DNA of 40,000 bases, from positions 1-40,000 of the forward strand of contig JAOARU010000005.1 in NCBI GenBank assembly GCA_025210675.1, read 5' to 3'. The notes under the pieces are model-generated. The model saw only the letters and a program-made list of their open reading frames with translations, was not told the origin of the DNA and searched no databases. This document shows, in pieces, positions 4,689 through 36,056 of this stretch. The position numbers and the translations under genes were made by a program. Source of the DNA: Candidatus Altimarinota bacterium (GTDB lineage: Bacteria > Patescibacteriota > Gracilibacteria > CAIRYL01 > GCA-016699755). The number at the start of each line of letters is the position of its first letter. The stretch's first letter is position 1.

Positions 4689-4707
4689 GTTTTTTTTAAA
4701 AAAAATA

Positions 4708-4736
4708 TTGACTTGTCCTTAATTCTTTAATAAAAT
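4708..4736 (+). promoter_or_regulatory. Sigma70-like promoter for tRNA-Ala (TTGACT-N17-TAAAAT)
   Basis: TTGACT at 4708-4713, a 17-nt spacer, and TAAAAT at 4731-4736, about 20 nt upstream of the tRNA 5' end. Confidence 0.45.
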
Positions 4737-4756: not shown

Positions 4757-4833
4757 GGGGCATTAGCTCAGTTGGCTAGAGCGCCTGCTTTGCACGCAGG
4801 AGGTCATCGGTTCGACTCCGATATGCTCCACCA
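4757..4833 (+). tRNA. tRNA-Ala (anticodon UGC), CCA encoded
   Basis: The acceptor ggggcat pairs with atgctcc and has the G3:U70 Ala identity pair. The anticodon loop is ctt-TGC-ac, the T arm is atcggttcgactccgat, and the 3' end is acca. Confidence 0.95.
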
Positions 4834-4897
4834 TTAAAATGTTCTCATACCGAACACAGTGAGGTATGGGGTTATTTTAATTGTAAATATTAGCATT

Positions 4898-5005
4898 GAA
4901 CCGATGACCTCCATCTAATTAAGCAGTCATCGGGACACGAAGCGAAAGTCTTTAAGCAAAGCGATAAGACGGAGCAGAGTGGCGACTCCGATATGCTCCA
5001 CCATT
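4898..5005. repeat. Scrambled tRNA-Ala-derived fragments: one inverted 15-mer plus a direct copy of the tRNA 3' part split by a 49-nt insert
   Basis: Nt 4898-4912 (gaaccgatgacctcc) is the exact reverse complement of tRNA nt 4799-4813. Nt 4926-4933 (gtcatcgg) equals tRNA nt 4803-4810. Nt 4983-5005 (cgactccgatatgctccaccatt) is an exact 23-nt direct repeat of 4813-4835. Confidence 0.75.
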
Positions 5006-5313: not shown

Positions 5314-5343
5314 AAAAAAGAGGAGACATACCTCCTCTTTTTT
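5314..5343. terminator. Bidirectional hairpin terminator downstream of glnA
   Basis: In aaaaaagaggag-acatac-ctcctctttttt, the stem gaggag/ctcctc is extended by A:T pairs and flanked by A and T runs on both sides. Confidence 0.7.
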
Positions 5344-5360: not shown

Positions 5361-6695
5361 TTAGTAAATATCCAGATAGCTTTCTATCTCCCAATCACTT
5401 ACATGTATCCTAAATGAATCCACTTCTTTTTGCTTAGCCTCAAGGTATTTTTCAAATGTATGCTTTCCGAGAACACTTTTCACTAAATCACTTTTTTCAA
5501 ATTTTGAAACCGCTTCGATCAATGAAGCTGGAAGTGTTGATATTCTCATACGTTTTGCTTTCTTGTCAGTAAATTCAAAAATATTTTCCTCAACTGGATC
5601 TGGCGCTTTCATCTTTTTTTCAACTCCATCAAGACCTGCTGCCAACATCAATGCAAATGCAAGATAAGGATTTGCTGATGAATCAGGACACCTAAGCTCA
5701 CATCTGGCTGCTGCTTTTTGATGTGAACTCTTTGGAATTCTAATCAAAGCGGAGCGATTTGTTTGCCCCCAAGCTACATACACAGGTGCTTCATAACCTG
5801 CAACAAGCCTCTTATAAGAATTTACAAGAGGATTTGTAATCGCTACTATCTCCTTGATACTCTTAAGCTGTCCTGCAATAAACTGCATGGCTGTTTCAGA
5901 TAAATTATACTTATTTTTATCATCAAAAAATATATTTTCACCATTTTTTGCTAATGACTGATGAACATGCATTCCTGATCCATTTATACCAGAAATAGGC
6001 TTCGGCATAAATGTTGCATGCAAACCAAATTGATTTGCAACAGCCTTTAAGGCCATTTTTACAGTAAGCACACTATCAGCTTGAGTTAAAGCATCTGAAT
6101 ACTTAAAATCAATTTCATGTTGCCCCTCTGCAACTTCATGATGGATTGCCTCAACATCTATCCCCATTTGCGATACCACCTCACTCATTGCAATTCTGAT
6201 TGGACCTGCCTTGTCCATTGCATATTCAAAATAACCTGCCTTGTCATGTGGCTTCAAAATAGCCTCTCCGTCTTCATCTTTTTCTAAAAGAAAAAATTCC
6301 AACTCAGGACCAACAAAATAATCTGAAAATCCCATTTTTTTAGCTCTTTCTAGCTGTTTTTTTAGTATATATCTTGGATCACCTTCAAATGGTTTTCCAT
6401 CAGGCAAATAAACATCGCAGATAATTCTTGCCACTTTTCCCTCCTGCTCTGAACCTTCCCATGGAACTATTGCAAATGTTTTTAAATCAGGTTTCAAATA
6501 CATATCTGATTCATAAATCCTAGTAAACCCTTCGATTGATGAACCGTCAAACCATACATTATTATCTATTGCGCCTTCCAATTTTGTAATCGGCATAGTG
6601 ATACTTTTTACAAAACCAAAAAGATCACAAAATTGAAAATGCACAAAACGAACATTTTTTTCTTTGCAAATTGCAAATACTTCTGATTTTTTCAT
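5361..6695 (-). CDS. glnA: Glutamine synthetase, type I
   Basis: 444 aa with FGFVKSITMP, GSSIEGF, NGSGMHVHQSL and the NRSALIRIP motifs typical of GSI. Confidence 0.95.
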   Translation of the reverse strand: MKKSEVFAICKEKNVRFVHFQFCDLFGFVKSITMPITKLEGAIDNNVWFDGSSIEGFTRIYESDMYLKPDLKTFAIVPWEGSEQEGKVARIICDVYLPDGKPFEGDPRYILKKQLERAKKMGFSDYFVGPELEFFLLEKDEDGEAILKPHDKAGYFEYAMDKAGPIRIAMSEVVSQMGIDVEAIHHEVAEGQHEIDFKYSDALTQADSVLTVKMALKAVANQFGLHATFMPKPISGINGSGMHVHQSLAKNGENIFFDDKNKYNLSETAMQFIAGQLKSIKEIVAITNPLVNSYKRLVAGYEAPVYVAWGQTNRSALIRIPKSSHQKAAARCELRCPDSSANPYLAFALMLAAGLDGVEKKMKAPDPVEENIFEFTDKKAKRMRISTLPASLIEAVSKFEKSDLVKSVLGKHTFEKYLEAKQKEVDSFRIHVSDWEIESYLDIY

Positions 6696-6784
6696 AAGGT
6701 TAGCAATAAATTTTTAAATTATGTACAAATTATTGCTCATTTTACACAAAAGTCAATATAATTTTGTACAAATTTTTGTATACA

Positions 6785-15584: not shown

Positions 15585-15828
15585 TTTTAGATTTTTAAAA
15601 ATACTTTTCTTATCATTACACAAAACAAGCAAAAAATAAAGCCTTATAAGTAATTGATGCGTATTTTAATCAAAAAATATAAGCAAAAGCAGTTAATAAG
15701 CAATACTGATTTAAAAAAAACAAGCACCAATGATGAAAAATTTAAATGCCAAATAGCTTATTTAAGGCACAAAAAAAGATTTGCAAAAATAAAAATAATC
15801 TGATAATTTAAAAATAAGCAATAAAAAA

Positions 15829-15856
15829 TTGACAAAAAAATAATTTATTGTAAAAT
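15829..15856 (+). promoter_or_regulatory. Sigma70-like promoter (TTGACA-N16-TAAAAT) for the 82-aa ORF
   Basis: TTGACA at 15829-15834, a 16-nt spacer, and TAAAAT at 15851-15856, 37 nt upstream of the ATG at 15893. Confidence 0.45.
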
Positions 15857-19267: not shown

Positions 19268-19929
19268 CCTTAACAATATCACTTAAATTTAGATTAAAAA
19301 TTAACACTAAAACACTTTAAATGAAAGAATAAAAATCATTTTTTTGAATAAATTTTGTATACATAATCTAAAAAAATTTTATAATTATATAACAATTAGA
19401 TTAAATTTTTATTTTTTAGGTTTTTTATTTTTGAATAAAAATTTTGATTTAGTATAAAATTTTTGAACATTTTTTAATCTTTTTAAATAAATACATATCT
19501 CATTTTTAATTACACATTTTTTATATAATCATTATCGAACAAAAAAATTATTCACTTAATTTACAATAAAAATAAAAACAATCCGTAAAAAGCCAAATTT
19601 TAATACAAAAAACCATATTTTTCACAAAAATCAACATTTATAAAAAAGTTTTAATATAAAGCTTTTTTAATATTTTAATTTAACAAGTAAACAAAAAAAT
19701 ATAACTTTTTTTAATAAAATTTTTTAAGCAAAAAAGCCCTAAATTAAAACAAAAAACCTGATCAAAAAATGTGAACAAATGGCTTAAATAAGCCCATAAA
19801 ACCAAAAAAAGGCTTGCAGTTATTATTTTTATATGCAAAAATCTTCTTGAAACTTTTTATGCCACCCATTTTGCAAGGTGCATAAATAAGCCGCTAAATA
19901 GTGTATAAAAATTTTGTTCAAATAAAATA

Positions 19930-21156
19930 ATGGCTAGAGAAAAAATAATTGCCGGCATTGATATTGGTGCTTCCAAAATTAGAACAGTTATTGGAATTTT
20001 GGATCCAGAAAAAAAAGAGCCTCATATAATAGGTGCGGGGGTATCACCTTCTCTTGGACTCAGGAAAGGTGCCGTAGTTGATATTGATGAGGTTATTGCC
20101 AACATCTCAGCATCACTTGAAGATGCAGAAAGAATAAGCGGCATTCCTGTGCATCATGTTTTTGTAGGAATTGGCGGCCCTCACATAGAAGCTACTGACT
20201 CAAGAGGTGTTATAGCTATTGGTGGCAAAGAAATCAGCGAAGACGACCTAAATCGTGTTCTTGAAGCTGCTGAAGCAGTATCAATGCCTCAAAATAGACG
20301 TATTTTAAGAATTATCCCAAAAAGCTTTTCTGTTGATGAACAAAAAGGCATTCGCTCACCTATTGGTATGAGCGCTATTCGCCTTGAGGTTGATGCTCAC
20401 ATCATCACAGGACAATCTCAAATTGTAGACAATATAGAACGTTGTGTGCATCAAGCAGGCGTTGACATTGACGACTTTGTTCCATCATCACTTGCAGCAG
20501 CTGAAGCAGTATTATCAAGAAGACAAAAAGAACTTGGTGTAGTATCTATAAATATAGGAGCTGACTCAACATCTGTTGTTATATATGAAGATGGGGCTAT
20601 TTTGTACTCAGCAACTATCCCAGTAGGTGGATCTAGTGTTACAAATGATATCGCTATTGGACTAAGAAGCTCTATTGATACAGCTGAAAAAATCAAAATC
20701 GAACACGGAACTTGCCTCCCTGAAGAAATCTCAGAAAGAGAGACAATTGATCTAGCATTATTATCTAAAATTGATAAACAAAAAGTGTCTAAAAAACACC
20801 TAGCTGAAATAATCCAAGCCAGATATCATGAAATTTTTATCATGATAAAAGACGAACTCAGAAACATATCAAGAGACGGAATGCTTCCTGCAGGAGCTAT
20901 TCTTTCAGGAGCAGGAGTCAAGACATCTGGTGTTTCAGAGCTTGCTCGTGAAGTACTTGGACTTCCTGTACAAATCGGATTTCCTCAAGAAATATCAGGA
21001 GTAGTCGACAGAATTGACGATCCATCATATTCAACTGCTGTTGGATTAGTGCTTTGGGGCTCAAGATTTGAAGGAAAATCATACTCACTCTCATTTGCCA
21101 ACTTCAACAAGGCGTTTTCGTCTGTTGGCTCATTTTTCAAAAAATTACTACCTTAA
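19930..21156 (+). CDS. ftsA: Cell division protein FtsA
   Basis: IIAGIDIGASKIRTVIG, actin-like ATPase motifs, and a C-terminal amphipathic tail FSSVGSFFKKLLP. Confidence 0.95.
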   Translation: MAREKIIAGIDIGASKIRTVIGILDPEKKEPHIIGAGVSPSLGLRKGAVVDIDEVIANISASLEDAERISGIPVHHVFVGIGGPHIEATDSRGVIAIGGKEISEDDLNRVLEAAEAVSMPQNRRILRIIPKSFSVDEQKGIRSPIGMSAIRLEVDAHIITGQSQIVDNIERCVHQAGVDIDDFVPSSLAAAEAVLSRRQKELGVVSINIGADSTSVVIYEDGAILYSATIPVGGSSVTNDIAIGLRSSIDTAEKIKIEHGTCLPEEISERETIDLALLSKIDKQKVSKKHLAEIIQARYHEIFIMIKDELRNISRDGMLPAGAILSGAGVKTSGVSELAREVLGLPVQIGFPQEISGVVDRIDDPSYSTAVGLVLWGSRFEGKSYSLSFANFNKAFSSVGSFFKKLLP

Positions 21157-27358: not shown

Positions 27359-28147
27359 ATGCTCCAATACAAAATACCGCAGGACGTCCAAATAGAAGAC
27401 AGGATTACATCATTTCTGACAATGCGTCAGTTAATCATTTGTGCAGTTGGAGGAGGTATAGCGTATTTCTTTTATATCGCTTTATCTTCAGTATTTTATG
27501 CTGAAGTATGGTTCCCCCCTGTATTTCTTTTGTCAGCAATCACTATTGCTATTGCATTTGTTAAAATCAATGGAATCAGATTTACAAAATGGTCATTATT
27601 GCTTTTTGAATTTCTAACAGTACCTCGTAAAAGAGTCTGGGACAAGAGAGCAACTTGCGATATACTTTTTTCATATGTTGGATCTAGAGTTGGTTCACAA
27701 AACCAAAACAATAAAAAACAAAAAGAACAAGAAAGGCTTGAACCAAAAAAGAAACATCTAAGCTCACTTGAAGAACTCAGTATAAAACTAGACCAAAACC
27801 CATTTGAGCACATAGAACAAAAAAAAGACCACACAGATGAAACTAGCGATCACGACTTAACAGCAGCCATACTCCACAACAAAGAAGAAAAACAACGCCA
27901 AGAAGAACGCCTAACACAAAACATAGAACAAAGAAACTCAATGCCAACCGAACAAGCAATAGAAAAACAAGAAAAACCAAAACAAGAATCAAAAAGCATA
28001 GAAGAATTAATAAATGTAGCAATTCCAACATCACACAAAAGATCAACACCAGTAAGAGAAAAAAAGATAGACACAAATCAAACCCCAACAATACCAGATC
28101 ATCATAAAGATATTTTAAAAAACCTATCAGACGACAAAAATGAATGA
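27359..28147 (+). CDS. PrgI/VirB3-like small membrane protein with a long K/E/Q-rich low-complexity tail (262 aa)
   Basis: The N-terminus YKIPQDVQIEDRI..LTMRQLI is followed by two hydrophobic helices, as in PrgI/TcpE/VirB3-type T4SS proteins (recalled family pattern). The C-terminal roughly 150 aa are low complexity. Confidence 0.45.
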   Translation: MLQYKIPQDVQIEDRITSFLTMRQLIICAVGGGIAYFFYIALSSVFYAEVWFPPVFLLSAITIAIAFVKINGIRFTKWSLLLFEFLTVPRKRVWDKRATCDILFSYVGSRVGSQNQNNKKQKEQERLEPKKKHLSSLEELSIKLDQNPFEHIEQKKDHTDETSDHDLTAAILHNKEEKQRQEERLTQNIEQRNSMPTEQAIEKQEKPKQESKSIEELINVAIPTSHKRSTPVREKKIDTNQTPTIPDHHKDILKNLSDDKNE

Positions 28148-28847
28148 CCAAAGCGTAAGACAAAGAAAAACACCAAAAACAGCCTCAACCCAAATGCACC
28201 TACCAATTGCAGAAATTAAAGAAAATGTAGTTGTTTTAAAAAATGGTGGAATTAGAGCTATTTTTCAGACATCTAGCGTCAATTTTAACCTAAAATCAGA
28301 AGAAGAACAAAACTCTATCATTTACGCTTTTCAAGGGTTTTTAAACACACTTGAATACCCTATTCAAATACTAATCAGAAGTAAAAAATTAAACGTAGAT
28401 TCATATATGGACAATCTTCAAGAAGTCTACAACAAACAAGAAAATCCCCTACTCAAAAAACAAACATTTGAGTACATGGAATACATAAAAAAACTAGTAG
28501 AATATGCTGATATTATGGAGAAAAATTTTTATGTAGTTGTGCCATATGACCCAATCAGAGCCAAAAATCCAAACATGTGGTCACAATTCATCGAAAATAT
28601 CCGTCCGACTGATTCACTTGAAGCTATTCGTCAACGTCACAGAGAATTTGCCTCACTCAAAAAAGGACTAGACGCCAGATGCAGCTCTGTTCAATCAGGA
28701 CTGGAAGGCTGCAATCTAAGAGCAGAAAGACTAATTACCAAGCAATTAACTGAGCTATTTTTTGAGATATACAATCCAACACTCTCAAGAAATCAAAAGC
28801 TCAGATCAGCAAATGGCACAGGAGATTTAAATCTTTTGCAAAATTAG
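28140..28847 (+). CDS. VirB4/TcpF/PrgJ N-terminal-domain-like protein lacking an ATPase domain (235 aa)
   Basis: QMHLPIAEIKENVVVLKNGGIRAIFQTSSVNFNLKSEEEQNSIIYAFQGFLNTLEYPIQILI resembles the N-terminal region of Gram-positive-type VirB4 ATPases. There is no Walker A motif anywhere in the ORF. The ATGAATGA junction gives an 8-nt overlap with the upstream gene. Confidence 0.45.
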   Translation: MNDQSVRQRKTPKTASTQMHLPIAEIKENVVVLKNGGIRAIFQTSSVNFNLKSEEEQNSIIYAFQGFLNTLEYPIQILIRSKKLNVDSYMDNLQEVYNKQENPLLKKQTFEYMEYIKKLVEYADIMEKNFYVVVPYDPIRAKNPNMWSQFIENIRPTDSLEAIRQRHREFASLKKGLDARCSSVQSGLEGCNLRAERLITKQLTELFFEIYNPTLSRNQKLRSANGTGDLNLLQN

Positions 28848-28868: not shown

Positions 28869-30959
28869 GTGAAATACGCAGAGATAACCTTTCGGGAAAA
28901 CACATTTAATCAGGAGAGTTTTACCTTTAAAATTCCCTATTTTCTTGAAAATAAAATTCAAATTGGACAAATTGTTGAAGTAAATTTTCGCAATTTTCTT
29001 AAAAGAGGACTAATAATTGAATTACACGACAATAAGCCTTCTTTTGAAACAAAAGAAGTCATAAAACCCTTAACACCAAGCTTAATCAACAAAAAACAAA
29101 TCAATATCATCAAACAAATTTCCGAAAAAACTTTTGATAATTTCTCTAAATACCTATCACTTTTTATTCCTGAAAAAATCTGGAAATCCGATGGGATACC
29201 ACCTGCAATAGAATATATCATATTAAAAAATGCTGATTTTAAAGCCAGAGGCAAAAAACAACAAGAACTCTTAGACACACTCAAGAAAAAAGGCAAAATA
29301 ACAATCCAAGAAGCTCGAAAAATAACAAATATCCAAAAGCTACTTGAAAATGAGATTTTAGAACTCAGCCTAGAAGAAAAATTTAATGACACAGACCTAA
29401 AAATAAAAAAAGACCCAAAAACAGAGGCATTTTTAAATAAAATCCTTCAAAAAAAAATCACCCTTCTTTTTGGAGCACCAAAAAGCGGAAAAAGCTACAT
29501 AGTAAAACAACTGACCAAAAAAATCACCCAAGAAAACAAACAAGTCTTAATACTCAATCCTGAAATCCTACTCAGCATTAATTTTATAAAAAAACTAGAA
29601 CAAGAATTTGGCAAAGAAAATCTACTCATCTATCATTCTAGGCTTTCAGAAAGCGAAAAAAACTCAGCTTGGTGGAAATGCAAAACCAAACAAGCTAAAA
29701 TAATAATAGGCAGCAGAAGTTCCCTGTTTTTGCCATTTGCGGAACTTGGCATGATTGCAATTGAAGAGGAGCACGATGACTCATATAAAAATGAACAATC
29801 CCCACGCTTTCACGCATTTGACCTAGCAAAAATCACAGCAAAAAACCACGATGCAAATCTAGTCTTAACCAGTGCAACACCTCGCATTGAGACTTTTTAC
29901 AAAGGGCAAAGTCGCCAAATTAACCTAATCAAAATCAATAAAAAATCAGGAAACAAAAAACCATTAATAATTGACCTCAAAAACGAACTACTCAAACAAA
30001 ACAAAAGCCCTATTTCAGAACTACTAAAAAGAGAAATATCCTCAACAATAAGCCAAAAAAAGAAAGTGATGCTGTTTATAAACCGGCGAGGATTTTTTTC
30101 AACATTATTTTGCAAAGACTGCGGACAGGCTCAAAAATGCGATTTTTGCCAAATCAGCCTCACCCATCACAAAAAAGACAACAAAGACGTATTAATATGC
30201 CATCATTGCGGCAGATTTTATACAAAATTAAACAAATGCAAATACTGCAAAGGACACGATCTTAAATTTTTTGGTTTTGGCACACAACAAATAGAGCAAC
30301 AGCTACAAATAGAATTTCCAGAAGCAAAAATCACCAGAATTGACCGAGATTCATTACAAAAAAAAGACAAACTAAACTCTGTATATAGACATTTTACTGA
30401 TTCTGATACAGACATTCTTATCGGCACTCAAATCATCAGCAAAGGCTTTGACGATGAACAAATCGGACTTGTAGCCATAATCTCAGCTGACAATGCACTG
30501 CAAATGCCTGATTTTAGAGCGCATGAGAAGAGCTTTGCCTTACTGAATCAAATCATTGGCAGAGCCAGATCAGACAATAGCAAGGTCTTAATACAAACCT
30601 TTATCCCCCAAAATAAATCAATCCAGCAAGCCATAAATTCTGACTATGAATCTTTTTATCAAGAAGAAATAATGCACAGAAATACACTAAAACTACCCCC
30701 ATTTACCAGAATAGCAAAACTAATCATCAAAAATACCTCAAAAGAAAAAGCCTACAAAAAAGCTCAAAAAATTCACGAACAAATCAAAAAAAATCTCCAA
30801 AAAGACGAAAATGCCTTTATAGCACCATCTTTAACACCATTTAAGCATGGCAAATACAATATCAATGTTTTTGTGCATTCTAATCAACCAGAGCGCTTAA
30901 TAAAAGACCTAAACCCAAAAGACATCAAGATAGACATTGATCCAATAGATACTTTATAA
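28869..30959 (+). CDS. priA: Primosomal replication-restart helicase PriA (GTG start)
   Basis: Walker A is GAPKSGKS, the DExH-like box is IEEEHDDSYK, and the Cys-rich Zn region is CKDCGQAQKCDFC...CHHCG...CKYC. Confidence 0.9.
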   Translation: MKYAEITFRENTFNQESFTFKIPYFLENKIQIGQIVEVNFRNFLKRGLIIELHDNKPSFETKEVIKPLTPSLINKKQINIIKQISEKTFDNFSKYLSLFIPEKIWKSDGIPPAIEYIILKNADFKARGKKQQELLDTLKKKGKITIQEARKITNIQKLLENEILELSLEEKFNDTDLKIKKDPKTEAFLNKILQKKITLLFGAPKSGKSYIVKQLTKKITQENKQVLILNPEILLSINFIKKLEQEFGKENLLIYHSRLSESEKNSAWWKCKTKQAKIIIGSRSSLFLPFAELGMIAIEEEHDDSYKNEQSPRFHAFDLAKITAKNHDANLVLTSATPRIETFYKGQSRQINLIKINKKSGNKKPLIIDLKNELLKQNKSPISELLKREISSTISQKKKVMLFINRRGFFSTLFCKDCGQAQKCDFCQISLTHHKKDNKDVLICHHCGRFYTKLNKCKYCKGHDLKFFGFGTQQIEQQLQIEFPEAKITRIDRDSLQKKDKLNSVYRHFTDSDTDILIGTQIISKGFDDEQIGLVAIISADNALQMPDFRAHEKSFALLNQIIGRARSDNSKVLIQTFIPQNKSIQQAINSDYESFYQEEIMHRNTLKLPPFTRIAKLIIKNTSKEKAYKKAQKIHEQIKKNLQKDENAFIAPSLTPFKHGKYNINVFVHSNQPERLIKDLNPKDIKIDIDPIDTL

Positions 30960-30966
30960 AAATATA

Positions 30967-30994
30967 TTGACATATAAATGATATATTTTAAAAC
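30967..30994 (+). promoter_or_regulatory. Possible sigma70-like promoter (TTGACA-N16-TAAAAC) in front of the GC-rich island
   Basis: TTGACA at 30967-30972 and TAAAAC at 30989-30994. The architecture matches the promoters at 4708 and 15829. Confidence 0.35.
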
Positions 30995-31009
30995 GGATAT
31001 AGTATTTTT

Positions 31010-31325
31010 GCGGAGCTTGGAATAAGCCAAGACTTCGCGATCCTTAACAACCCCTAAGAAAGAAGGTAATTAATGAGCAAAGCAATCAACCATACCCCAA
31101 GAAGAAAAGCCCGGATCGAAAATCCTTCCTCCGAAAGAAAAAGAGGAAGGAAACGGCATAGTGCCGTGACCAAGATCAAGGGGCAGATTCGAGGCATCAC
31201 AGCCTCGACCCCAGAGTCCGCAATACAAGAAATCGCATCCAGGATTGAGGCGCTCGGCAAAAAGCGGGTCCAAACCCGCCTCTTTAAGCTCCTGGAAAAT
31301 CGCCTATTTATAGGGTATTTTTTAT
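31010..31325 (+). ncRNA. Candidate structured RNA of unknown class (alternative reading: 84-aa basic ORF 31073-31327)
   Basis: By hand count 31011-31300 is about 49% G+C, in an AT-rich context. The terminal helix is ggagctt (31012-18) with aagctcc (31286-92). Perfect hairpins are 31124-31/31143-50 (8 bp), 31153-58/31162-67 (6 bp), 31189-95/31202-08 (7 bp, flanked by gggg/cccc) and 31264-69/31274-79 (6 bp). Three mutually overlapping ORFs on both strands are typical of a GC-rich RNA gene. Strand and ends are tentative. Confidence 0.45.
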
Positions 31326-31429
31326 AACTTCTAACTTAACTGAATCTTGTTTATTGAACAATTTTTTTATTCAAAAAATCTACTTAAACTTATTTTAAAG
31401 ATTTTAAAACCTCACAATAAAGAAGCCTC

Positions 31430-31451
31430 AGTATCTCAACCAAGGCTTCTT
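31430..31451 (-). terminator. Hairpin downstream of pilT (9-bp stem)
   Basis: aagaagcct pairs with aggcttctt around a 4-nt loop (caac) capping further pairs, or a 14-nt loop if these are left unpaired. It lies 10 nt after the pilT stop, and the U run on the minus strand is weak. Confidence 0.4.
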
Positions 31452-31460
31452 ATGATGGCT

Positions 31461-32549
31461 TTACATGCCTCCTGCATACTCAACTTGCCTCAATTCAGAA
31501 AAATCCTCATGATTCTCGATATTTGCGATTGCTTGCTCTTTTGTAATTACTCCTTTTTTGTATAATTCCAAAATAGAACGAGAAAATCCCAAGCTACTAT
31601 CAAGAGTGGCATGCTCGATCATCGATCTGATCTTTGAGATGTCATTATTTGCAATCATATTTCTAACCACATCATCTGGCACTAGATATTCACAAGCAAG
31701 CGCTCTTCCTGCCTGATCTTTTCTAGTGATCAATTTCTGAGAAATAATAGCTCTCAGAGCAAATGACAATTTTGTTCTGATAAGATTTTGTTTTTCATCA
31801 GGAAAAATACCAATAATACGAGAAAGTGCTGATGTAGTGCTTTCTGCATGCATTGTAGATATAACCAAATGCCCTGTCTCAGCGATATCAAGAGCCATGG
31901 TAAAACTCTCAAAATCCCTAAGCTCACCAACTACAACCACATTTACATCTTGACGAAAAATATGCTTACCTGCTTCCTTAAAAGCAAGCACCTGACTTCC
32001 CACCTCACGCTGAGAAATAAAACTCTTTTTTGATTCATGAATATACTCAATTGGATCCTCAATTGTAATAATATTACACTTACGAGTCTCATTTATCTCA
32101 TTAACAAGAGAAGCCATTGTTGTTGATTTACCTGATCCATTTGGACCTGTTACCAAAACCAAACCATGCGTCAAACTTGCAACATGATTGAGCTGTGATG
32201 GTATTCCAAGCTGCTCAAGTGTATAAGTATTGTCTGGAATCGCCCTAAACACAATAGCCATTCCCTGCATATCATAAAAAAAAGTCACACGAAATCTACC
32301 ATGTGTAGAAAATGTACTTGAAAGCTCAAAATCCTTCTGAGTTTTGAGTACTTCTAGCTGCTTTGCTGAAAGAATTTCACTAGCTAGATTTTCAATATTT
32401 TCATGAGTCAACATCTCAACACCTTCAATATTTTCCAAATCACCACTTGGAGTTCTAAGATAAGGAATATTGTCAGAATATAAATGCAAATCAGAACATG
32501 CGTTGTTTACTTGATACTCAAGCAATGAATGTAGATCATCTAATTTCAT
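31461..32549 (-). CDS. pilT: Type IV pilus retraction ATPase PilT
   Basis: Walker A is GPNGSGKSTT. ITIEDPIEY, GELRD and TGHLVISTMHA are PilT-family Asp and His boxes. The 362-aa size is typical of PilT. Confidence 0.9.
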   Translation of the reverse strand: MKLDDLHSLLEYQVNNACSDLHLYSDNIPYLRTPSGDLENIEGVEMLTHENIENLASEILSAKQLEVLKTQKDFELSSTFSTHGRFRVTFFYDMQGMAIVFRAIPDNTYTLEQLGIPSQLNHVASLTHGLVLVTGPNGSGKSTTMASLVNEINETRKCNIITIEDPIEYIHESKKSFISQREVGSQVLAFKEAGKHIFRQDVNVVVVGELRDFESFTMALDIAETGHLVISTMHAESTTSALSRIIGIFPDEKQNLIRTKLSFALRAIISQKLITRKDQAGRALACEYLVPDDVVRNMIANNDISKIRSMIEHATLDSSLGFSRSILELYKKGVITKEQAIANIENHEDFSELRQVEYAGGM

Positions 32550-32610
32550 GATTTTTGTTTTTAATTTTTCATATTATTATACCAAAAAATTATTGTTTAT
32601 CAAACAAATA

Positions 32611-34522: not shown

Positions 34523-34634
34523 TTCTAATTCCGAAAAACTATATTTAACTTACACATTTTATATAAAATCTTCAAGGAAAAAATATAAAAAAACAGCTTA
34601 AATGAAAGCCAGTTTTATTGAATAATTTTTTTGA

Positions 34635-36056
34635 TCAAAAACCCATTTCTTTCCTTAAATGAGTCAAATTTCTAGAATAACCCACATCAAGCTTGCGATT
34701 TTGCTCGACCTTGCGTATAGCACTCATGACACTTGTATGATCTCTTCCTCCAAAGTAATTTCCAATTTTTTGCAGAGGCAATTTAAGATACTTCTTACAA
34801 AACCACATAGCCACCTGACGAGGTACTACGAATTCACGAGAGCGATTAGCACCAAGAATAGCTGACCTGCTAATATTATAAAATTCTGAAATCTTATCAA
34901 TCACATCACCAATATTTTTAGCATAATCTGTCATCTGCTCCTCCTGATTTGTATTTATCACCATGTCTTTATTGACCCTTTTTATAATCTGAGAAAGGAT
35001 TGTTTTATTAGGCAAAACCCCTTCAATATCAATACGAGCTACAATTTGAGTCAAGACACCTTCAAGCTCTCTAATTGAGTGATGAACATTTTCTGCTATA
35101 AAAGTAAGCATCTCAACATCAAGCACAATTCCAATCTCCTGTGCCTTTTGCTGAAGAATAGCAACCCTAGTCTCAAGAGAAGGAAAATACAAATCAGCCA
35201 ACATGCCCATAGAAAAACGTGATACTAATCTTGCAGACATACCATTTAGCTCACTTGGTGGCTTATCTGACGAGATAATGATTTGCTTATTAGCATCAAA
35301 CAAATCATTAAACAAATGAAAAAAAACCTCTTCTGTGCGCTCCTTTCCAGCTATAAACTGAATATCATCAATAATAAATACATCTGCCTTGCGCCATTTT
35401 TCACGAAACCTCTCCCCTTTTTGATTTCTAACCATATCTATAAATTCCGCAAAGAAATTTTCAGCAGATACAAATGCCACCTGAAGTGCTGGCTTTGTAC
35501 GAATTATCTCATTGCCAATTGCATGTAATAAATGAGTCTTGCCAAGCCCCACATCTCCATAAATAAAAAGAGGATTATATTTTGCACCAGGACTATGCGC
35601 CACAGCCTCACTACAAGCATGAGCAAGCCTATTTTCAGGACCTATTACAAAATTAGCCAAGCTAAAATTTGGATTAAGCATGCGAGACAAAATCCCGCCC
35701 TGAAGCTTTACCTCTGAGATTTTTGGCATCTTGCGAGGCTTTTTGTCCTCCTTAGGAAAAAGACCCAAAAGATCTATTGTACGAGGGTCTGATTCATTGT
35801 CCAGTGTACCATCTACCACAAAATCAACTCTTGCAATCTCAGGATTGTAACCCTGAGCTATTCTCTGAATCTTGTTTCTAGAATTTTTCTCATGCCAAGA
35901 TACAAATATATCTCTAGGCAAAGCTACCTCCAACACACCATCTTCACAAGATTTTACACAAGATCCCCTAAACCAAGTAATTAAATTTGGTCGAGTTATC
36001 TCATTTTCCTTAAGCCCTACAAGTATATTTTTCCAAAGCTCTTTTTTATCAGGCAT
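34635..36056 (-). CDS. dnaA: Chromosomal replication initiator DnaA (start at MPDKKELW)
   Basis: GDVGLGKTHLLHAIGNE is the Walker A, DVFIIDDIQF is the Walker B, and the C-terminal DNA-binding domain contains RQVAMWFCKKY...GGRDHTSVMSAIRKV. Confidence 0.95.
   Translation of the reverse strand: MPDKKELWKNILVGLKENEITRPNLITWFRGSCVKSCEDGVLEVALPRDIFVSWHEKNSRNKIQRIAQGYNPEIARVDFVVDGTLDNESDPRTIDLLGLFPKEDKKPRKMPKISEVKLQGGILSRMLNPNFSLANFVIGPENRLAHACSEAVAHSPGAKYNPLFIYGDVGLGKTHLLHAIGNEIIRTKPALQVAFVSAENFFAEFIDMVRNQKGERFREKWRKADVFIIDDIQFIAGKERTEEVFFHLFNDLFDANKQIIISSDKPPSELNGMSARLVSRFSMGMLADLYFPSLETRVAILQQKAQEIGIVLDVEMLTFIAENVHHSIRELEGVLTQIVARIDIEGVLPNKTILSQIIKRVNKDMVINTNQEEQMTDYAKNIGDVIDKISEFYNISRSAILGANRSREFVVPRQVAMWFCKKYLKLPLQKIGNYFGGRDHTSVMSAIRKVEQNRKLDVGYSRNLTHLRKEMGF

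Follow-up and report, generated by a model that had tools for sequence, protein, structure and literature searches.

Between the convergent genes priA and pilT lies a G+C-rich, hairpin-rich island. No known RNA or protein family matches it and public data contain no relative of it, so the reading that fits best is a small RNA gene, lineage-specific and as yet unconfirmed. The more specific proposal is that the island specifies, on its + strand, a structured RNA of ~290 nt that meets the converging pilT unit at a hairpin common to both; we would give this somewhat less than an even chance. It is favored because in composition and folding the island resembles the RNase P RNA of the same organism, because the promoter is of the host's type, and because no Rfam family claims the sequence. 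An unclassified structured RNA, which is what the initial annotation had proposed, is the best-supported reading but not a proven one: the best terminator-like hairpin of the island reads on the - strand. The present standing of the island is that of a flagged candidate, one sequence, and not of a discovery.

The island and its setting

The window (the whole stretch of 40 kb that was analyzed) has a G+C content of 34.4%; the island, taken as 31011-31300, contains 143 G+C (49.3%), and the 150-nt stretch of highest GC in the entire 40 kb begins within it, at 31143 (GC 0.56, ~3.6 sd above the mean). The count of 143 and the identity of the two flanking genes had been given in the initial annotation and were reproduced; its statements about the sequence all proved correct on rechecking. 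The genes for PriA and PilT converge on the island, pilT from the - strand, and are separated by 501 nt; elsewhere in the window, most convergent pairs have spacings of 0-52 nt or overlap, and one has a gap of 635 nt. On the + strand of the island A greatly exceeds T (AT skew +0.4), a tendency shared with the sense strands of the RNase P RNA and of host genes.

The island recurs unchanged in two further assemblies from separate sequencing runs: SRR21418666 is identical to the window sequence, while SRR31168895 has 14 SNPs, all of them in the flanking genes, outside the priA-pilT gap. An assembly artefact is thereby excluded. The synonymous rate would predict ~2.6 SNPs in the 501-nt gap; finding none there falls short of significance (p ~0.07).

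The features referred to below are:

30957-30994, + strand: promoter-like element matching the host type, with an A/T-rich upstream tract, TTGACA (30967-72), N16 and TAAAAC (30989-94)
31008-31040, + strand: H1, the 5' stem-loop of the predicted fold, with 13 pairs, one bulge and the loop AAUAAG
31041-31122, + strand: A-rich, largely unpaired segment (sequence and predicted fold)
31073-31327, + strand: basic 84-aa ORF from the ORF list, likely no gene
31123-31151, either strand: H2, perfect 9-bp stem UCCUUCCUC/GAGGAAGGA (31123-31/31143-51) with an 11-nt loop; P at least 0.87 on both strands
31153-31167, either strand: H3, perfect 6-bp stem ACGGCA/UGCCGU (31153-58/31162-67) with a 3-nt loop, from the predicted fold
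31180-31212, either strand: H4, 7-bp stem UCGAGGC/GCCUCGA (31189-95/31202-08) within a GGGG/CCCC clamp (31180-83/31209-12), from inverted-repeat search and fold
31259-31284, - strand: H5, terminator-like, GCGGGU-UUGG-ACCCGC (stem 31264-69/31274-79) followed by UUUUU and lengthened by an A-tract/U-tract
31286-31300, + strand: 3' arm of a possible closing helix, AAGCUCCUGGAAAAU, 15 nt, 80% complementary to its partner at 31004-31018
31294-31323, + strand: weak A/U-rich hairpin of the predicted fold, core CCUA/UAGG (31303-14), ending in U6 (31318-23)
31420-31451, - strand: 9-bp hairpin AAGAAGCCU/AGGCUUCUU with a 14-nt loop, found by inverted-repeat search right after the pilT stop and followed by UAUUGUG

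Promoter and fold

The promoter-like element reads AAAAATATATTGACA-N16-TAAAAC, is directed into the island, and would place the start of transcription near 31000. The initial annotation had singled it out; it is indeed there, and of the host's own type, but its -10 hexamer lacks the conserved final T. It consequently goes unlisted by a stricter promoter scan, and the missing T counts against reading the + strand as RNA. Intergenic promoter matches of at least 10/12 number six, and the five others (at 4708 before tRNA-Ala, at 6756, 11855 and 15829, and at 32603 before pilT) each directly precede a gene or tRNA and face toward it; the island's element is of one type with those ahead of tRNA-Ala and three genes. 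The -35 region of the island's element is similar to 15821-55 and to positions 1963-82 of L015.

The folding energy of the island is far below that of composition-matched shuffles, which is the generic mark of a structured RNA: z is -4.4 for the + strand and -5.1 for the - strand, and 0 of 200 shuffles reached such stability. When folding was rerun (z = -4.07 and -5.35, respectively), both strands came out at the top of 120 sampled 296-nt windows, whose mean z is -0.53 (sd 1.19; best unrelated window -3.45).

The constituent hairpins had largely been recognized by eye: at least four perfect local ones, including a 7-bp stem inside a gggg/cccc clamp, are confirmed, with stems of 9, 6, 7 and 6 bp. 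H1 is composed of two helices (31008-15/31033-40 and 31016-20/31027-31) with pair probabilities of 0.66-0.99; its 2 G-U pairs are possible on the + strand only and count in favor of an RNA on that strand. The A-rich segment that follows holds two similar motifs, CCCCUAAGAAAGAAGG (31050-65) and CCCCAAGAAGAAAAGC (31094-109), as well as the start codon (ATG, 31073) of the 84-aa ORF; a short hairpin, GGAU-CGAAA-AUCC, occupies 31113-25. The 7-bp terminal helix that was said to bracket the island (ggagctt at 31012-18 pairing with aagctcc at 31286-92) is present and extends to 15 nt, but "brackets" overstates the case: its 5' arm competes with the local H1, and forcing the closing helix yields -95.6 kcal/mol against -96.4 for the best fold, a cost of 0.8 kcal/mol. 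Since the main stems are all perfectly Watson-Crick, they could equally be palindromes at the level of DNA, which counts against an RNA.

A proposed small RNA

What might be made from the island? The proposal is for an independently transcribed, lineage-restricted small RNA gene on the + strand, extending roughly from 31000 to 31285-31325; that it is transcribed, which strand is used and where the transcript ends are all inferred from the sequence. A σ70-type promoter (A/T-rich tract, TTGACA, N16, TAAAAC) would start the transcript at ~31000. The 5' end would fold into the 13-bp stem-loop or, at almost the same energy, pair with 31286-31300 and close the molecule. Next would come ~70 nt of unpaired, A-rich RNA carrying the two CCCC-AAGAA-GAA motifs, and then three G+C-clamped hairpins with perfect stems. 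Placed between the converging units, the final hairpin (31259-84) would most likely end the pilT mRNA and, less efficiently, the small RNA itself. The G+C richness would be kept by selection for structure against A+T drift. The function can only be guessed at: the layout of stable hairpins would suit an RNA that acts in trans, binding a protein or other RNAs through its long accessible segment.

A wider proposal can be put forward tentatively, as a conjecture that we would sooner expect to fail than to hold: that there exists a hitherto undescribed class of ~290-nt, highly structured ncRNAs, so far sampled only in this island and confined to a deep and barely sampled lineage of the Gracilibacteria type, with its structure kept, like that of RNase P RNA, against A+T drift. 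Bacteria of the candidate phyla radiation (CPR) have tiny, compact genomes, and to our knowledge very few non-coding RNAs beyond the universal ones have been described for them; a literature search found nothing on CPR-specific structured RNAs.

Which strand?

Could the function instead reside on the - strand, with the island serving as a structured 3' portion of pilT transcripts, or as an RNA of that strand? We consider this unlikely, but it has more to say for itself than the other alternatives. A stack of hairpins there would stop pilT transcription before it became antisense to priA, and would shield the 3' end of the mRNA from exonucleases. H5 on the - strand has the properties of an intrinsic terminator (G+C-rich stem, short loop, U run), which speaks for one hairpin and not for the whole island, and a strict stem-plus-T-run test of the 40 kb scored only five hits, representing four distinct hairpins (one on both strands), with H5 and its canonical UUUUU among them. 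H5 forms 11 pairs on this strand, including 2 G-U pairs in its A/U-tract extension that are possible there only. The - strand also folds better (z -5.35 to -6.4) and into a better-defined global structure, with the MFE near the centroid and closed by the 7-bp helix, and U-rich tails (5 U in 8) come after H3, which is followed on this strand by UUUCCUUC, and, by eye, after H2.

Several considerations weigh on the other side: 1) A z of -4.2 is likewise obtained for the strand opposite the genuine RNase P RNA, so that folding z cannot pick the strand. 2) With U at 36% of this strand, U-rich tails are unsurprising (an estimated chance of ~12% per hairpin). 3) Efficient termination at H5 would leave the other 250 nt untranscribed from pilT, and there is no promoter-like site just beyond H5. 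4) Most other convergent pairs manage with the short gaps noted above. 5) The host-type promoter faces the opposite way.

For the favored + strand RNA the 3' end is the difficulty: no canonical + strand terminator was found in the island, and the + strand tail of H5 is only CUCUUU. H5 is a terminator-like element that probably serves pilT and may act bidirectionally. The weak hairpin with a T run that had been remarked on downstream is present (31303-14, then T6 at 31318-23), and 31294-31323 may be a second, weak + strand terminator. The hairpin at 31420-31451 may similarly be the first terminator of pilT.

Relatives, and the question of foreign DNA

The search of related sequences that the initial annotation had called for was carried out: neither the priA/pilT loci of relatives nor metagenome, viral, phage and plasmid collections yielded a homologue of the island. 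With PriA as anchor of synteny, genome contigs gave one distant match and metagenome contigs none. PriA and PilT homologues from a set of 5.8 billion clusters led to contigs at 36-58% identity, which show neither priA-island-pilT synteny nor a blastn match to the island. In the nearest relatives (PriA 47%, PilT 58% identity) no island follows priA or pilT where the contigs reach far enough; the closest PriA contig stops 105 nt past priA. In JGI data a 2191-nt contig carries a 99%-identical PriA variant whose alignment stops at residue 674 of 696; this contig apparently ends before the island. With homologues absent from all the collections searched, conservation of the island is known within one species only.

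An alternative is that the island represents foreign or mobile DNA and serves no function in the cell: a recent, low-copy, non-autonomous element (MITE- or PATE-like, with hairpins at its ends) or a decayed fragment from a relative of higher G+C content. The composition breaks abruptly, the island's 49% G+C equals that of contigs of the nearest relatives (0.46-0.49 for L003, L007 and L010), and syntenic positions in relatives are without the island. The 15-nt, 80% complementary inverted repeats lie exactly at both borders, and an imperfect direct repeat flanks them, TATAG-TATTTTT (30998-31009) and TATAGGGTATTTTT (31309-22); however, this repeat, TATAG(GG)TATTTTT, is short, A+T-rich and was spotted post hoc, with a rough chance estimate of 0.02-0.1. 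The window does show a further sign of integration in the form of a duplicated tRNA-Ala 3' end, but no transposase or integrase is found near the island. Rickettsia palindromic elements, BOX, Correia and ERIC elements, MITEs and PATEs are intergenic, hairpin-rich, a few hundred bases long, and multi-copy. The island resembles such small palindromic mobile repeats in size, intergenic location, hairpins, border inverted repeats and perhaps the flanking direct repeat; unlike them, it is seen only once in the 45 kb examined (the 40-kb window and 4.8 kb adjoining) of a genome of probably ~1 Mb, and has no match in the phage and plasmid collections (searched by blastn) or in the viral ones. Its hairpins also differ from one another in sequence and are therefore not an array of one repeat. 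Finally, a host-type promoter adjoins the island, and folding on a par with RNase P RNA is not what random foreign DNA should show. An origin of this kind strikes us as quite improbable.

The 84-residue open reading frame

The three ORFs of at least 60 aa noted over both strands are confirmed (84, 68 and 67 aa). Is the longest, which is annotated as a hypothetical protein, a real and very basic small protein, recently imported from a relative of higher G+C content or else a diverged nucleic-acid-binding protein such as bS20? The + strand promoter would allow its strand to be transcribed, its ATG lies, like host starts, in an unpaired A-rich stretch, and the JGI annotation calls it. AAGGT does precede the ATG by 5 nt, and host genes are, as was also stated, without SD sequences; the SD-like element carries little weight precisely because this genome does not use SD. 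PGAP, in contrast to JGI, called no CDS here (the PriA and PilT accessions are consecutive), nor did the Logan gene caller. The composition of the ORF is not that of a host gene: GC at codon positions 1/2/3 is 0.46/0.46/0.53 against 0.49/0.34/0.25 in host genes, an excess of >10 sd at position 3 (sd 0.03). The log-odds score for host codons comes to -0.22 per codon, as in antisense ORFs, whereas four real small genes score +0.36 to +0.61. Nor is the ORF significantly long, since 0.24 of shuffled islands contain an ORF of at least 84 aa, and it runs across the terminator-like H5, with its final 9 codons in the A+T-rich flank.

Searches with the protein sequence found only itself among 5.8 billion protein clusters, and itself plus one low-complexity chance match (E=1e-4) among 1.84 billion representative proteins. 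There was no family match in Pfam, NCBIfam or PHROGs, nothing in the PDB by phmmer at E<=10, and no match to phages by tblastn or in back-translated scans of metagenome and viral contigs. AlphaFold2 models three helices at a mean pLDDT of 74.6, but an antisense control ORF is modelled equally well (pLDDT 71.3, also three helices), so that the model is uninformative. Ribosomal protein bS20 chains head the Foldseek list against the PDB, with E>1 and TM 0.41-0.50, which is not significant. The ORF is like bS20 in length (~85-100 aa in bS20), basicity and, by model, three helices; it is unlike bS20 in showing no sequence or profile similarity and in using codons that are not the host's. Identity with bS20 was dropped, with Pfam and NCBIfam yielding nothing at E<=1 and the PDB nothing at E<=10 despite the bS20 chains in it. 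The foreign small basic ORF that the initial annotation had entertained as its alternative is thus weakened by codon usage, unremarkable length, want of homologues and an uninformative SD; the ORF is probably spurious, and a genuine protein is the most doubtful of the readings weighed here.

A role in replication, which the proximity of dnaA and priA might suggest, was rejected: DnaA-box matches in the window are not enriched (12 against 13.5 expected) and none is in the island or its gap.

Comparison with known RNAs

The Rfam covariance search that had been recommended was run, at the gathering threshold across the window and at E<=10 on nested stretches of 701 and 346 nt. It placed no known family on the island, only noise (CRISPR-DR hairpin, miRNA and lncRNA models at 13-19 bits); there was no SRP family at E<=10 and no match to tmRNA. 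ARAGORN finds two tRNAs in the window, and neither a tmRNA nor a tRNA at the island. The initial annotation's failure to fit RNase P RNA, SRP RNA, tmRNA or 6S RNA by hand is thereby upheld. Whatever becomes of the candidate RNA, it is useful to have established that the island is no universal RNA, that the real RNase P RNA has been located, and that the 84-aa "hypothetical protein" is probably not a gene.

The 6S RNA is a housekeeping RNA whose sequence diverges rapidly, so that profile searches can miss members; its usual size is roughly 150-200 nt. Like 6S RNA (RF00013 and related families), the island has 5' and 3' ends that can pair as a closing stem around a large unpaired region. Unlike 6S RNA it has no Rfam match and is longer, at ~290 nt; 6S RNA is a rod with a two-sided central bubble, whereas the folds of the island, MFE and constrained alike, are multi-hairpin with a one-sided unpaired stretch of ~70 nt. 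The island might conceivably still be a 6S RNA that has diverged very far.

The logic by which the island was detected has a precedent. The screens of the Breaker laboratory reportedly flag an unusually long, G+C-rich intergenic region of an A+T-rich genome, and are said to accept candidates only once homologues show covariation. The island is like their candidates in the first respect; as a single sequence without homologues it is, by that standard, a raw candidate. Three papers from that laboratory deal with structured ncRNA candidates drawn from long, G+C-rich intergenic regions (PMC6429828, PMC8632094, PMC11109978).

RNase P RNA provides the remaining comparison. Some CPR RNase P RNAs are reported to score below Rfam thresholds (PMC8172020), which does not apply to the island. 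The organism's canonical RNase P RNA sits elsewhere, ~3 kb outside the window at positions 2290-2650 of L015 (148 bits, E=1.6e-47), where the gene is followed by CCCGAGAG-UUCG-CUCUCGGG-UUUUU. The island itself, without a model match at E<=10 and with P4 and the other core sequences not found by eye on either strand, was rejected as an RNase P RNA. RNase P motifs placed by hand on its - strand (GGAGGAAGGA...CCGGGC, GGCUUAU) were rejected too, GGCUUAU being the loop of H1 and the order wrong. The two are nevertheless alike in other ways. The class A RNase P RNA (RF00010) of this organism has z values of -4.65/-4.21, a GC of 0.43 and an AT skew of +0.19, and the + strand of the island equals it with a z of -4.5 to -4.8 at a GC of 0.49 and an AT skew of +0.4; it and the island are both G+C-rich in an A+T-rich genome, ~300-360 nt in size, A-rich in the sense strand, near -4.5 in z, and located in a gap of their own. 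If the island is what we propose, an RNA structured like RNase P RNA and kept G+C-rich in a 34% genome would hint at a dedicated role in this uncultured lineage.

The island and its surroundings

The genes bordering the island, identified by Pfam matches as priA (28869-30959, + strand) and pilT (31461-32549, - strand), converge on a 501-nt gap that is unusual because the other convergent pairs in the window mostly lie 0-52 nt apart or overlap (the one exception: 635 nt). Within it lies a sharply bounded G+C-rich block: 143 of the 290 nt at 31011-31300 are G or C (49.3%, vs. 34.4% for the window), a recount that reproduces the figure of the initial annotation. The maximum 150-nt G+C content of all 40 kb (0.56) starts at 31143. 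The island sits in ordinary chromosomal surroundings, which run from ilvB, ilvH and ilvC through a NUDIX gene, the PrgI and TraC-like genes, priA, the island itself and pilT to a functionally uncharacterised 622-aa protein, dnaA and a thioredoxin-reductase-like gene. Housekeeping genes otherwise make up this region, but the PrgI-family and TraC-like genes (27359-28847) immediately upstream of priA encode parts of type IV secretion or conjugation systems. A 28-nt A+T-rich motif (gaacaatttttttattcaaaaaatctac) at 31350-31377 recurs in the same orientation, with 89% identity, at the dnaA 3' end (34614-34641). A link of the island to replication, suggested by its neighbours, was rejected: the window has no excess of DnaA-box matches, and the island has none. 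The window's most A+T-rich stretch, a 647-nt gap of 17% G+C (19283-19929) upstream of gene 19930-21156, is not obviously an origin, since it holds no DnaA-box match with one mismatch allowed.

The source is labelled by NCBI as a 'Candidatus Gracilibacteria bacterium' MAG. In some Gracilibacteria lineages UGA codes for glycine; in this one, TGA ends 8 of 34 window genes and the table-11 ORFs are long, so the code is standard. Sampling of the lineage is very sparse: among named organisms the closest PriA is that of a Peregrinibacteria bacterium (32% identity), and the best non-conspecific matches (PriA 47%, PilT 58%) are from a single Logan sample. In that relative, ndk follows pilT after 40 nt, and the priA contig stops 105 nt past the gene with no G+C-rich start within that distance; more distant relatives have other neighbours beside priA and pilT. 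The island had no blastn match in any of the retrieved loci, in phages or in plasmids. A second strain shows 14 SNPs over 8091 nt, of which 10 are synonymous; the 501-nt gap has none, whereas the synonymous rate predicts ~2.6 (p ~0.07): at most a hint of constraint.

Reality and folding of the island

The island is not an assembly artefact: its sequence is identical in assemblies of two separate runs, SRR21418666 (locus L001) and SRR31168895 (locus L012), though the flanking genes of L012 differ from the window at 14 sites. It folds with z = -4.4 and -5.1 on its two strands (dinucleotide shuffles; 0 of 200 equally good) and ranks first on both strands among 296-nt windows sampled across the 40 kb (n=120; mean -0.53, sd 1.19; best unrelated window -3.45). 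The island's fold exceeds chance. The elements initially listed are all there: four perfect hairpins, the GGGG/CCCC clamp, three ORFs of at least 60 aa, and, downstream, a weak hairpin with a T run. The 7-bp ggagctt/aagctcc helix also exists at the island ends, in a form less simple than proposed: it extends to 15 nt (31004-18/31286-300) at 80% complementarity, and its 5' arm can alternatively form a local 13-bp hairpin, with only 0.8 kcal/mol between the alternatives.

Which strand?

The signals that bear on strand are the following.

30957-30994, + strand: promoter-like element of the island, TTGACA-N16-TAAAAC, preceded by AAAAATATA
4708 (element 4698-4736): like element ahead of tRNA-Ala, TTGACT-N17-TAAAAT
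15829 (element 15821-15856): like element ahead of gene 15893, TTGACA-N16-TAAAAT
1971 (element 1963-2000) of L015, same-organism sequence just left of the window (SRR31168895): like element upstream of an 86-aa ORF and then the RNase P RNA gene
31279 to 31259, - strand: H5, a terminator-like hairpin, GCGGGU-UUGG-ACCCGC followed by UUUUU

A host promoter architecture thus recurs: an A-run, (T)ATTGACA/T, 16-17 nt, then TAAAAT or TAAATT. Six intergenic sites in the window match at 10/12 or better, and the five outside the island all lie just upstream of a correctly oriented gene. The island's element is present as first described, with a -10 hexamer (TAAAAC) that does not end in the conserved T; a stricter promoter scan omits the element for this reason. 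The + strand of the island has A >> T, like the sense strands of host genes and of RNase P RNA, and the 5' stem-loop H1 (31008-31040) contains two G-U pairs on that strand only. These three features favour the + strand, and the island is quite possibly a structured small RNA read from that strand, the reading to which we tentatively give first place. Such an RNA would begin at ~31000 and meet pilT transcription at H5, which would serve mainly as the pilT terminator and perhaps, weakly, as the RNA's own (+ tail CUCUUU); a weaker A/U hairpin with U6 at 31294-31323 would be its back-up terminator.

H5 favours the opposite strand. It is among the five matches (from four different hairpins, as one matches on each strand) to a strict terminator test in the window, its A-tract/U-tract extension involves G-U pairs on the minus strand only, and the fold of the island is better defined on that strand. 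A 3'-UTR/terminator stack, or an RNA, of the minus strand is nonetheless unlikely. Canonical terminators are very few in the 40 kb; among them is a perfect bidirectional one, AAAAAAGAGGAG-ACATAC-CTCCTCTTTTTT (5314-5343), just downstream of the minus-strand gene 5361-6695.

Foreign DNA or a small protein?

Less likely still is inert foreign or mobile DNA, to which one might ascribe the 15-nt imperfect inverted repeat at the island's borders, its flanking by TATAG-TATTTTT and TATAGGGTATTTTT, and a G+C content equal to that of the nearest relatives' genomes; however, only one copy occurs in 45 kb, mobility genes are absent, the hairpins share no relationship with one another, and the flanking repeat, short and A+T-rich, was spotted post hoc.

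That the basic 84-aa ORF (31073-31327, +) is a real gene for a small protein is unlikely, and the more so by comparison with the foregoing. An AAGGT does lie 5 nt ahead of its ATG, in a genome whose genes, in keeping with the initial annotation, lack Shine-Dalgarno sequences. JGI calls the ORF; the Logan gene caller does not, nor does PGAP, as consecutive PriA and PilT accessions attest. Across codon positions its G+C barely varies and stays high at the third (0.46/0.46/0.53), vs. 0.49/0.34/0.25 for host genes (n=19; sd 0.026 at position 3) and a GC3 of 0.17-0.34 for real small genes of the window. A host codon model gives it -0.22 log-odds per codon (two antisense ORFs: -0.11 and -0.05; four real small genes: +0.36 to +0.61), and an ORF of at least 84 aa arises in 24% of shuffled islands. 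Pfam, PHROG, NCBIfam and PDB sequences (E<=10) gave no match, nor did scans of metagenome and viral contigs with the back-translated ORF; among 5.8 billion clusters it matched only itself, and HMMER, run over all 1.84 billion representatives, added one non-self match, to a low-complexity repeat protein (E=1e-4). AlphaFold2 predicts three helices (pLDDT 74.6), and the top Foldseek matches are bS20 chains; this resemblance carries no weight (E>1, TM <=0.50), an antisense 67-aa control ORF being modelled equally confidently (pLDDT 71.3, three helices). In the + strand RNA model the ORF would extend across the terminator H5 to its stop codon at 31325, which counts against it. A small remainder of probability goes to something other than these four readings.

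Known RNA families and an internal control

Rfam at gathering thresholds finds two tRNAs only in the window, and at E<=10 the island yields only noise of 13-19 bits: no known family matches. ARAGORN finds no tmRNA. The last 23 nt of tRNA-Ala (cgactccgatatgctccaccatt, 4813-4835) are directly repeated 170 nt downstream (4983-5005), with a 17-nt piece of the same tRNA (ggaggtcatcggttc.a) inverted between the two copies (4896-4912); this looks like the scar of integration or excision at a tRNA 3' end. A weak (14 bits) permuted-tmRNA match there probably stems from tRNA-like sequence.

Some CPR RNase P RNAs have been reported to score below Rfam thresholds (PMC8172020), and the search for this RNA was therefore widened beyond them. 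L015 supplied it.

2027-2287: 86-aa ORF of unknown function, RNase P RNA directly after
2290-2650, + strand: canonical class A RNase P RNA (148 bits, E=1.6e-47), ~3 kb to the left of where the window begins
2654-2680: textbook terminator after the RNase P RNA gene, CCCGAGAG-UUCG-CUCUCGGG-UUUUU

This gene rules out RNase P RNA as the identity of the island. The observation behind the structured-RNA interpretation that the initial annotation preferred is confirmed and the interpretation itself partly supported; the island, one orphan sequence, can reasonably be regarded as a candidate undescribed RNA. The RNase P RNA gene doubles as an internal positive control for the folding signal, and it reveals that folding z-scores cannot discriminate strand: its values are -4.65 (sense) and -4.21 (antisense), at a G+C content of 0.43 and an AT skew of +0.19. 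In the same comparison the island has a G+C content of 0.49, an AT skew of ~+0.4 and z-scores of -4.5 to -4.8 (+) and -5.0 to -6.4 (-). H5 resembles the terminator 3' of the RNase P RNA gene, a further point for the minus strand, and the signal of the island is like that of this RNA of the same genome in kind and in strength.
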